DNA of 40,582 nt from a virus (taxonomy: Duplodnaviria; Heunggongvirae; Uroviricota; Caudoviricetes). Under the pieces are notes generated by a model. That model saw only the letters and a list, made by a program, of their open reading frames with translations. It had not been told where the DNA came from and made no database searches. The position numbers and the translations under genes were made by a program. Numbering within the stretch: the stretch's first letter is position 1; each line of letters begins with the position of its first letter. Below, one piece after another: positions 18,917 to 20,179 of the stretch. The DNA lies in the IMG/VR virus record IMGVR_UViG_2778261692_000003, positions 1-40,582 of that record; one strand, given 5' to 3'.

Positions 18917-19159
18917 TTATGCTCCGGTAGTGAACAGGTCTAACGCTTCCTTCGATTTACGCACCGCTTCGATTGTGCGGGTCGTGATATCTGAATTAGC
19001 GCCGCCTGACTGGAAGTGAATTTTGAATAGCTCAAGCTTCAGTTCGTCAGTGCCAATGAACTGAAATGCTTCCTCTGCGGCTGCGTTCTGGTTCATGACC
19101 AGCTTGTAAATCTCTAACTGGAATTTCTGTTCTTCAGTCATGGGAATAATCTCTGCCAT
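18917..19159 (-). CDS. Hypothetical small protein upstream of terminase
   Basis: 80-aa ORF with GGAG RBS, ends 3 nt before small-terminase start. Confidence 0.5.
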   Translation of the reverse strand: MAEIIPMTEEQKFQLEIYKLVMNQNAAAEEAFQFIGTDELKLELFKIHFQSGGANSDITTRTIEAVRKSKEALDLFTTGA

Positions 19160-19262
19160 TGTTGGCTCCGTTTATCCGTTAAAAGGGATATCAGTTAAGT
19201 TATCCCGTGTAGGGTATAAGCCATTGTCAAAGCCACTCTGTAGGGAATGGCTTTTGTAATAA

Positions 19263-19643
19263 CTACTGTTCGCTTAGCTTCTGCTTCAGCAAGTAACCTT
19301 CGAGCATCCAGATTTTGTTTACAGCATTTTGCCGGGCAATCTTCCGACCAATTTCTGCATCAAAGTTTTCAGGGCTTGCACAGGCACTCTCTCCGGTGAC
19401 GGTGAAGCCATTCTTCAGCACCAGTACGCAGAAAGTGAGCAACTTCAATGGTGATAAATCACGATCGTCTTCTTCTGGTTTTTCCCTGCCACAATATTCG
19501 TTGCTGGAAATGGCACCATTACGTCCATCATAAGCAGTAAAGTAATGCTCGCTTTTAATCACGTCTTCGATGTGCTGCGGGGTAACTCGCGGAGCGGTTT
19601 TGCCTTTCTCAACGATTTCTTTTTCGATTTGCTGGTCGTTCAT
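19263..19643 (-). CDS. Hypothetical protein (126 aa)
   Basis: ORF in late-operon orientation between rha and terminase; no recognisable motif. Confidence 0.45.
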   Translation of the reverse strand: MNDQQIEKEIVEKGKTAPRVTPQHIEDVIKSEHYFTAYDGRNGAISSNEYCGREKPEEDDRDLSPLKLLTFCVLVLKNGFTVTGESACASPENFDAEIGRKIARQNAVNKIWMLEGYLLKQKLSEQ

Positions 19644-19719
19644 AATTATGACCTTGTTGGTTGTTAAAGATGTTTTTGTGATGGCGATAAAAAGGCCGCC
19701 TGAGCGACCTGTTAGTTGT

Positions 19720-19893
19720 TCACAACTTCCATTGCTGAAGGTTCAGCATGTCGAAAAATGAGCCGCATTTAGGGATATTTTCCATTCTTGCCCTCTCTTC
19801 AGCCGCTTTGTAATAAGCCATTGGCCTTTTCACACCATCAGCACCAGTGATGTATTCAACGCCTTCCTTCTGGTCTTTGTTTACGGAAACCAT
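19720..19893 (-). CDS. Hypothetical small protein (57 aa)
   Basis: ATG at 19893 with GGAAG RBS; track start at 19908 is GTG. Confidence 0.3.
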   Translation of the reverse strand: MVSVNKDQKEGVEYITGADGVKRPMAYYKAAEERARMENIPKCGSFFDMLNLQQWKL

Positions 19894-20179
19894 CGCAACA
19901 TCTTCCACTTGTTCGTTATCGATTCAGCGGATGTCTTTCCATCAGTCCGCCACCACAAAGAATCTTTTTTGCCATAAGGCTGGAGGTTCATCTTTCAGTG
20001 GCTGCCAGTGTTATTTCCCCACTTACTGGCTTGGGTTGTTTCGCTGTACTGCCGTAACTGGTGGTGCACAGATTTAGTTAAATCTGTTCTCGCCTGAACT
20101 ATCTTTTACATACCCGGATTGTGGGGATGTAAATCACGGTTTCATTATCAAGCCCACCCGTAGATGGGCTTTGGAATGG

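Follow-up and report, generated by a model that had tools for sequence, protein, structure and literature searches.

A variable lysis-to-terminase slot in a P22-like prophage holds two independent gene cassettes, one encoding a predicted Acb4-family signal sponge, beside a conserved resident gene

What do the small genes encode that lie between the rha gene and the packaging genes of P22-like phages, and might they act against host defence? We take up this question in IMG/VR virus record IMGVR_UViG_2778261692_000003 (Caudoviricetes), whose positions 1 to 40,582 (40,582 nucleotides, hereafter ‘the window’) contain an integrated P22-like (Lederbergvirus-type) prophage with host flank. A first-pass annotation had described three open reading frames (ORFs) of 80, 126 and about 57 amino acids (aa) that are oriented like the late operon and lie between rha and the small terminase gene, and their coordinates, strand and flanks are borne out here:

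18917–19159, minus strand: ORF-A, 80 aa
19263–19643, minus strand: ORF-B, 126 aa
19720–19893, minus strand: ORF-C, 57 aa from an ATG start (62 aa if the GTG at 19908 is used)

The ATG of ORF-C at 19893 is the start that is kept in diverged homologs. In our judgement the best explanation of this region, and a probable one, is an accessory slot between the lysis and terminase genes in which two independent cassettes (ORF-B and ORF-C) accompany a conserved resident (ORF-A), with ORF-B a predicted Acb4 sponge directed against the cyclic-oligonucleotide-based anti-phage signalling system (CBASS). The earlier observation is confirmed and its interpretation partly supported.

All three ORFs are real genes, conserved and under purifying selection. 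Against diverged copies, in comparisons where synonymous sites were saturated, the ratio of nonsynonymous to synonymous substitution rates (dN/dS) is 0.04–0.24 for ORF-A, 0.11 for ORF-B and 0.13–0.25 for ORF-C. That they might instead be chance reading frames in an intergenic spacer could be argued from the missing annotation of ORF-C in phage Gally and from the frequency of short ORFs on both strands of the region, but low dN/dS despite saturated synonymous divergence (even for ORF-C), ORF lengths kept across genera, and family E-values between 1e-35 and 1e-43 leave this idea a negligible probability, and it is already refuted by the conservation data. A further ORF of 36 aa (19991–19881) was considered and rejected as a gene, as just its first ~20 codons lie within the conserved block at 19930–20055 and its 3′ part varies with the insert that follows. 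Scans of the three proteins and of this 36-aa ORF with PADLOC and NCBIfam returned nothing.

The first-pass annotation found no motif assignable with confidence in any of the three, a statement that proves wrong for two: the 80-aa gene belongs to DUF2560 (see below), and the profile search against anti-defence families that had been proposed gives an answer for the 126-aa gene, namely Acb4. ORF-B matches Pfam PF13876 (Phage_gp49_66) over positions 1–82 of the 82-position model (120.5 bits, gathering score 27, E 4.5e-35), and the 1,331 members of PF13876 have been equated with the Acb4 family (Chang et al., bioRxiv 10.1101/2024.12.30.630793). Searched as a single sequence, its sole meaningful match in the PDB is 9e4w, anti-CBASS 4 (Acb4; phmmer E 0.0067), while a profile built from 13 homologs without the protein of phage SPO1 recovers that SPO1 Acb4 structure, 9e4w, at E 5.1e-9 over residues 12–86 of the 97-residue chain. 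Moreover, 123 of the 126 residues of ORF-B are identical in Sf6 gp66 (Q716B1), itself included among the Acb4 homologs of Table S3 (Chang et al., bioRxiv 10.1101/2024.12.30.630793). These profile matches place ORF-B firmly in the Acb4 (PF13876) family. The position of the gene is also that of Sf6 gp66, upstream of the DUF2560 gene, although Sf6 differs from the window in having neither the ORF-C cassette nor rha, and in carrying gp68 between the DUF2560 gene and the small terminase gene, terS.

The founding member of the family offers a functional model. SPO1 Acb4 is a tetrameric sponge that binds 3′3′-cyclic GMP-AMP (3′3′-cGAMP), other cGAMP isomers and cyclic UMP-AMP (cUA) and so blocks CBASS (bioRxiv 10.1101/2024.12.30.630793); in the same study eight of eight purified Acb4 homologs bound 3′3′-cGAMP and none of the eight bound cyclic di-GMP (c-di-GMP), while those from phages of Gram-negative hosts bound cyclic di-AMP (c-di-AMP) too. 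By homology, ORF-B would form a homotetrameric pinwheel with four pockets between its subunits that bind and sequester CBASS cyclic dinucleotides, and with the signal sequestered the host CBASS effector would never be activated. Its expected ligands would be 3′3′-cGAMP and cUA and, as in other members from phages of Gram-negative hosts, 3′3′-c-di-AMP as well, with c-di-GMP excluded. Like SPO1 Acb4, ORF-B is a small phage-encoded protein that matches PF13876 over its full length, and in the alignment of the two F48, F62 and I66, which give the pocket its aromatic and hydrophobic character, are kept together with the invariant G67. The two differ in that identity is only ~30%, in that ORF-B is longer (126 versus 96 aa, through a longer N-terminus and a 29-aa acidic insertion), and in that the gene for ORF-B, which is known here from its sequence, sits among the late genes of a temperate podophage. 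Since the cassette that carries it lacks both a promoter and a terminator, and since no sigma-70-like site was found on the minus strand between 18400 and 21200 (in a crude scan that weak promoters may escape), ORF-B would be expressed from the Q-antiterminated late transcript along with the virion proteins.

Several points weigh against this reading. Only three of the ten ligand-contact residues of SPO1 Acb4 are identical in ORF-B (F48, F62 and I66); the other seven, K36, E49, V56, Y57, N63, T70 and K81, correspond to L68, T81, C88, A89, D95, I102 and M113, so that the ligand range of ORF-B may differ from that of SPO1 Acb4. The acidic insertion (29 residues, ~38–66), missing in SPO1 Acb4, lies before strand beta1 and beside the position of K36. 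Literature searches, including one for Sf6 with Acb4, found no experiment on ORF-B or Sf6 gp66, and the identity of the eight homologs purified by Chang et al. was not found. A place in the late operon is also unusual for an inhibitor that is needed before the effector fires, to which a possible answer is that signal production may come after the late proteins appear.

[quoted passage not shown] Seven of ten contacts are changed, the insertion adjoins the pocket-forming strand, and there is a precedent in the Acb4-Sequestin fusion of Pseudomonas phage Ab09, which binds glycocyclic ADP-ribose (gcADPR) tightly and cGAMP more weakly. Nonetheless, the homologs that all bound 3′3′-cGAMP were diverse and included some from phages of Gram-negative hosts, and ORF-B and many proteobacterial members show strong conservation of the core, which runs from residue 66 to the end of the protein, such that we regard functional divergence of this kind as distinctly unlikely. 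The insertion is the most variable part of ORF-B among close relatives. We therefore retain a CBASS sponge as the predicted function of ORF-B, with a ligand range and a tetramer that are predicted by homology to SPO1 Acb4.

How the genes came to lie here can be read from a junction map, for which the region was compared by blastn with P22, PS34, HK97, Sf6, Huey, phiKp_30, Gally and one E. coli prophage (QML220601). The map rests on the following features, the hairpin at 19693–19710 coming from a terminator scan:

20137–20179, minus strand: hairpin-containing conserved block directly 3′ of the rha stop, kept in Huey, where a Tad2-like gene replaces rha
19930–20055, minus strand: 126-bp conserved block that flanks the insertion site on its left (blastn)
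~19674–19929, minus strand: ORF-C cassette including its terminator (blastn)
19693–19710, minus strand: intrinsic-terminator-like hairpin and T run directly 3′ of ORF-C
~19261/19264 to 19657/19673, minus strand: Acb4 (ORF-B) cassette (blastn)
19160–19262, minus strand: intergenic spacer common to P22, HK97 and PS34 (blastn junction map)

The 126-bp block (20055–19930) is 97–99% identical in P22, HK97, PS34, Sf6, Huey and phiKp_30. In P22, HK97 and PS34, which have neither cassette, it directly abuts the spacer (19263–19201), whereas in the window 666 bp are inserted between the two. The inserted DNA is divisible: Gally has ORF-C and its terminator (~19929–19674) and no Acb4; Sf6, Huey and phiKp_30 have the Acb4 part (~19657–19264) and no ORF-C; and E. 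coli QML220601 has both. This separate presence and absence argues for two independently acquired cassettes. Of the hallmarks of a moron, both cassettes show presence or absence between the same flanks, the ORF-C cassette alone has a terminator of its own, and the crude scan found a promoter for neither. A moron is in fact documented nearby, as P22 carries pid between orf25 and orf80, at a place that in related phages is empty or differently filled (Cenens et al. 2013, PMC3573128); the pid insertion corresponds to window position 19201/19173, ~30–90 bp downstream of the site of the window cassettes (19929/19264). The two loci share the same inter-module slot, from rha or orf25 to orf80, and the pid insert likewise has a terminator, but the direction of pid transcription is opposite to that of the window inserts, with which pid shares no sequence relationship.

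The ORF-C cassette appears to be a unit of gene and terminator. ORF-C matches phrog_5425 (E 6.7e-42) and has no match in Pfam; it is a rare gene whose homologs fall into 34 protein clusters, all in Enterobacterales, and which occurs in a single phage record, that of Gally, where it is unannotated. Homologs ~59% identical are found in Yersinia and Lelliottia prophages, likewise between lysis and terminase genes. The hairpin 3′ of the gene, AGGTCGCTnAGGCGGCC followed by a T run, has identical stems 3′ of the ORF-C homologs of E. coli, Yersinia and Lelliottia (~4190–4210 in locus L009 and ~4187–4207 in locus L012), while synonymous divergence (dS) of the coding sequence between the Yersinia and Lelliottia copies and the window exceeds 1. 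Stems that are kept while ORF-C diverges mean that gene and terminator travel together. Locus L009 additionally has a partial copy of the hairpin, AGGTCGCTTAGGCG, just upstream of the ORF-C homolog. The protein itself is neutral in charge, and its AlphaFold 2 (AF2) model, a hairpin and two helices, is of modest confidence (pLDDT, a predicted score from the local distance difference test, 69) and found no Foldseek match in the PDB (best E 1.6).

Given the neighbouring pid locus, ORF-C and/or the DUF2560 protein could be host-modulating moron products akin to P22 Pid, acting on host metabolism or the carrier state with no part in anti-defence. The adjacent insertion site holds Pid, an ORFan of 86 aa by which the dgo operon of the host is derepressed, and ORF-C shares with pid the possession of its own terminator. 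We consider such a role unlikely, as pid is divergent and separately controlled while ORF-C points the same way as the late operon and shows no promoter in our scan, and as similarity to any regulator, in sequence or in fold, is lacking.

ORF-A is of a different character from the two cassettes. It matches Pfam PF10834 (DUF2560) with 147.7 bits against a gathering score of 25 (E 1.1e-43, model positions 1–72 of 72), and is 100% identical to HK620 HkbM and 98.8% identical to P22 Orf80, with gp67 as the Sf6 counterpart; these proteins (98.8–100% identical to ORF-A) are likewise placed before the packaging genes, and only dispensability in P22 is documented. That accessory genes accumulate in this slot, as had been claimed, is right for the 126- and 57-aa cassettes and does not hold for the 80-aa gene: a full-length DUF2560 copy is present in 150 phage records, compared with 182 records that have a P22-type portal, which suggests that DUF2560 is a near-universal gene of the enterobacterial P22-like group as opposed to a variable accessory. 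A DUF2560 profile run against 1.84 billion representatives found 75 clusters at 50% identity, all of them short stand-alone proteins of ~80 aa; a few long hits (P0134 and P0152) were set aside as uninformative about fusions, since they look like frameshift read-throughs or mosaic junctions. The AF2 model of ORF-A is a confidently predicted fold of four helices (pLDDT 88.5) and the protein is acidic (charge −5.4). Foldseek found no fold match for this model in the PDB (best E 2.6) and, in BFVD, matched uncharacterised phage proteins only, while literature searches for DUF2560 found no functional study.

The fixed place of ORF-A before the terminase genes could be explained if it served as an accessory in DNA packaging or in the expression of terS. 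ORF-A directly precedes terS, its final codons hold the GGAG ribosome-binding site of terS, its stop lies 2 nt before the terS ATG, and the gene recurs in about 150 P22-like phage records. However, P22 with a cassette in place of orf25, pid and orf80 retains lytic growth and lysogeny (10.1101/2023.08.15.553423), and a P22 orf25–orf80 deletion yields viable particles (PMC11016777). Further, at least five TerL types with <70% identity among them have the identical DUF2560 protein upstream, a variety that speaks against its being a specific partner of the packaging machinery, and another small gene (such as orf59c or Sf6 gp68) often separates DUF2560 from terS. A packaging role for ORF-A is, in our view, very unlikely. 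More broadly, the outcome named as refuting the first-pass annotation, assignment of the genes to characterised structural or packaging proteins, did not arise, given the dispensability of P22 orf80, the variety of TerL types that accompany DUF2560, and the lack of Acb4 and ORF-C in most P22-like phages.

The DUF2560 gene also marks a recombination junction. Its first 28 codons (19078–19159) are found at 93–96% aa identity in HK97, HK022 and mEpX-type lambdoid siphophages (1400–1582 of locus L007 in HK97), in which the homology ends just upstream of the HNH gene gp74; a break after 28 codons points to a junction inside the gene.

The breadth of the slot is apparent from a census of 72 IMG/VR loci, each with the identical DUF2560 protein and with Rz. 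Slot length ranges from 304 to 1913 bp, with interchangeable cassettes, and together with the pid moron site (PMC3573128) and the junction map this upholds the earlier view of a variable accessory slot in P22-like phages. Rha-type genes occupy it in 36 of the 72 loci, Acb4 in 16, ORF-C in five, a Tad2-like gene (PF11195) in four, and a gene for an Acb2/Tad1-hairpin protein (PF24729) in one; KilA-N, T5orf172 and DUF551 genes and several ORFs without assignment are further occupants, and rha itself is replaceable. Two relatives illustrate the exchange. In phage Huey (locus L001, 997–1497, minus strand) rha has given way, beside Acb4, to a gene for a Tad2-like protein of 166 aa (PF11195, E 1.7e-24); the record labels both genes ‘anti-CRISPR protein’, a pipeline category label that we set aside in favour of the Pfam assignments, Acb4 and Tad2-like. 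In a second P22-like genome (locus L027, IMG/VR UViG_3300045988_027816, 3423–3707) the slot encodes a protein of 94 aa in which the Acb2/Tad1 hairpin domain is recognized (PF24729, E 3.5e-18). The slot of a Yersinia prophage (locus L011) has a 141-aa Acb4 homolog (3215–3640) and an ORF-C homolog in an altered order, plus two small genes of 63 and 126 aa whose function is unassigned, and two sister contigs of this locus have an unassigned 95-aa gene where Acb4 would be.

The presence of Acb4, Tad2-like and Acb2/Tad1-like genes indicates that three known signal-sponge families use one slot, so that several known anti-defence families occur at a single locus in relatives, the pattern by which an anti-signalling hot spot is recognized. 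A hot spot of anti-signalling genes with Acb4 and Tad2 has been described in N4-like phages (bioRxiv 10.64898/2026.06.04.730250). Both are fixed slots in which relatives carry differing mixes of Acb4, Tad2, other signal inhibitors and small genes of unassigned function, but they belong to different phage groups and their flanks differ, being primase-polymerase and virion RNA polymerase genes in the N4-like phages and lysis and terminase genes in the P22-like ones; the P22-like slot, unlike the N4-like hot spot, has Rha and KilA-N regulators among its occupants, and the functions of its genes are read here from sequence. Literature searches pairing P22-like phages with sponges found no such hot spot described for P22-like phages. 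That the P22-like lysis–terminase slot recurrently hosts signal-sponge genes is a modestly new point, as the Acb4 family and the variable slot were already known.

It is tempting to go further and to see in this slot a hot spot reserved for genes that inhibit nucleotide-signalling immunity, in which case ORF-C and DUF2560/Orf80 would be novel anti-defence proteins whose folds differ from those of all known sponges. We offer this as a tentative possibility, more doubtful than not. Nucleotide-signal sponges are short and build homo-oligomers whose inter-subunit pockets carry positive charge; both proteins are short enough (57 and 80 aa), ORF-C being neutral and ORF-A acidic in overall charge, and location by itself would give an anti-defence role of ORF-A and ORF-C a minority chance. 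That association is weak evidence, however, since the slot also takes in Rha, KilA-N, T5orf172 and DUF551 genes. Neither protein has a sequence or fold match to Acb2, Tad1, Tad2, Acb4 or any PDB entry, and sequence and profile searches of the PDB gave chance-level hits only (PTS IIA, E 0.14; AQ2171, E 0.047).

The slot lies within a longer succession of prophage genes. Early genes lie on both strands, and the late operon on the minus strand comprises holin, endolysin, Rz, rha, the three small ORFs, terS, terL and portal:

1–1158: integrase
2512–4365: tailspike
14862–17060, minus strand: portal
17062–18477, minus strand: terL
18474–18914, minus strand: terS, the small terminase subunit (146 aa; phrog_309, E 2.1e-68), downstream neighbour of the slot genes
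20180–20698, minus strand: rha, Rha family regulator, with PF09669 (Phage_pRha) and PF10549 (ORF11CD3), upstream neighbour
21041–21508, minus strand: Rz
21505–21981, minus strand: endolysin
21965–22288, minus strand: holin
39335–40582: host lacY permease gene, at the opposite window end from the integrase

The real start of rha is at ~20698 and not at the mechanical 20941, the match to phrog_518 starting at residue 81 of the mechanical ORF. A second terminator-like hairpin (20848–20867, minus strand) lies between Rz and the real rha start, within the over-extended mechanical ORF (20180–20941). An Rfam scan of the whole window at gathering thresholds found nothing. At the integrase end, an O-antigen acyltransferase-like gene and the integrase (1–2489) adjoin the tailspike gene, and in the nin region an HNH/NUMOD4 homing-endonuclease-like gene (26145–26747, minus strand) sits between ninB and a NinX-like gene. 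The portal (14862–17060) is 99.6% identical to that of phage phiv205-1, and only 56% and 34% identical to those of Sf6 and P22, unlike the DUF2560 and Acb4 genes, which are 97–100% identical to the Sf6/P22 copies; this disparity points to a sharp mosaic boundary at the start of terS.

The prediction for ORF-B supplies a testable function for a gene that Sf6 shares with hundreds of prophages of E. coli, Shigella and Salmonella and that goes by ‘gene 66 protein’ or ‘Gp49 family’, and would mean that temperate P22-like phages carry signal sponge genes in their late operon. Carriage of Acb4 may also expose a phage to sponge-sensing guard systems such as Panoptes and Panoptoo, which could explain its patchy distribution. 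With conserved flanks and a length of 0.3–1.9 kb, the slot is a compact place in which to seek further inhibitors of CBASS- and Thoeris-type systems, for which ORF-C and P22 orf80 would be the obvious first candidates.

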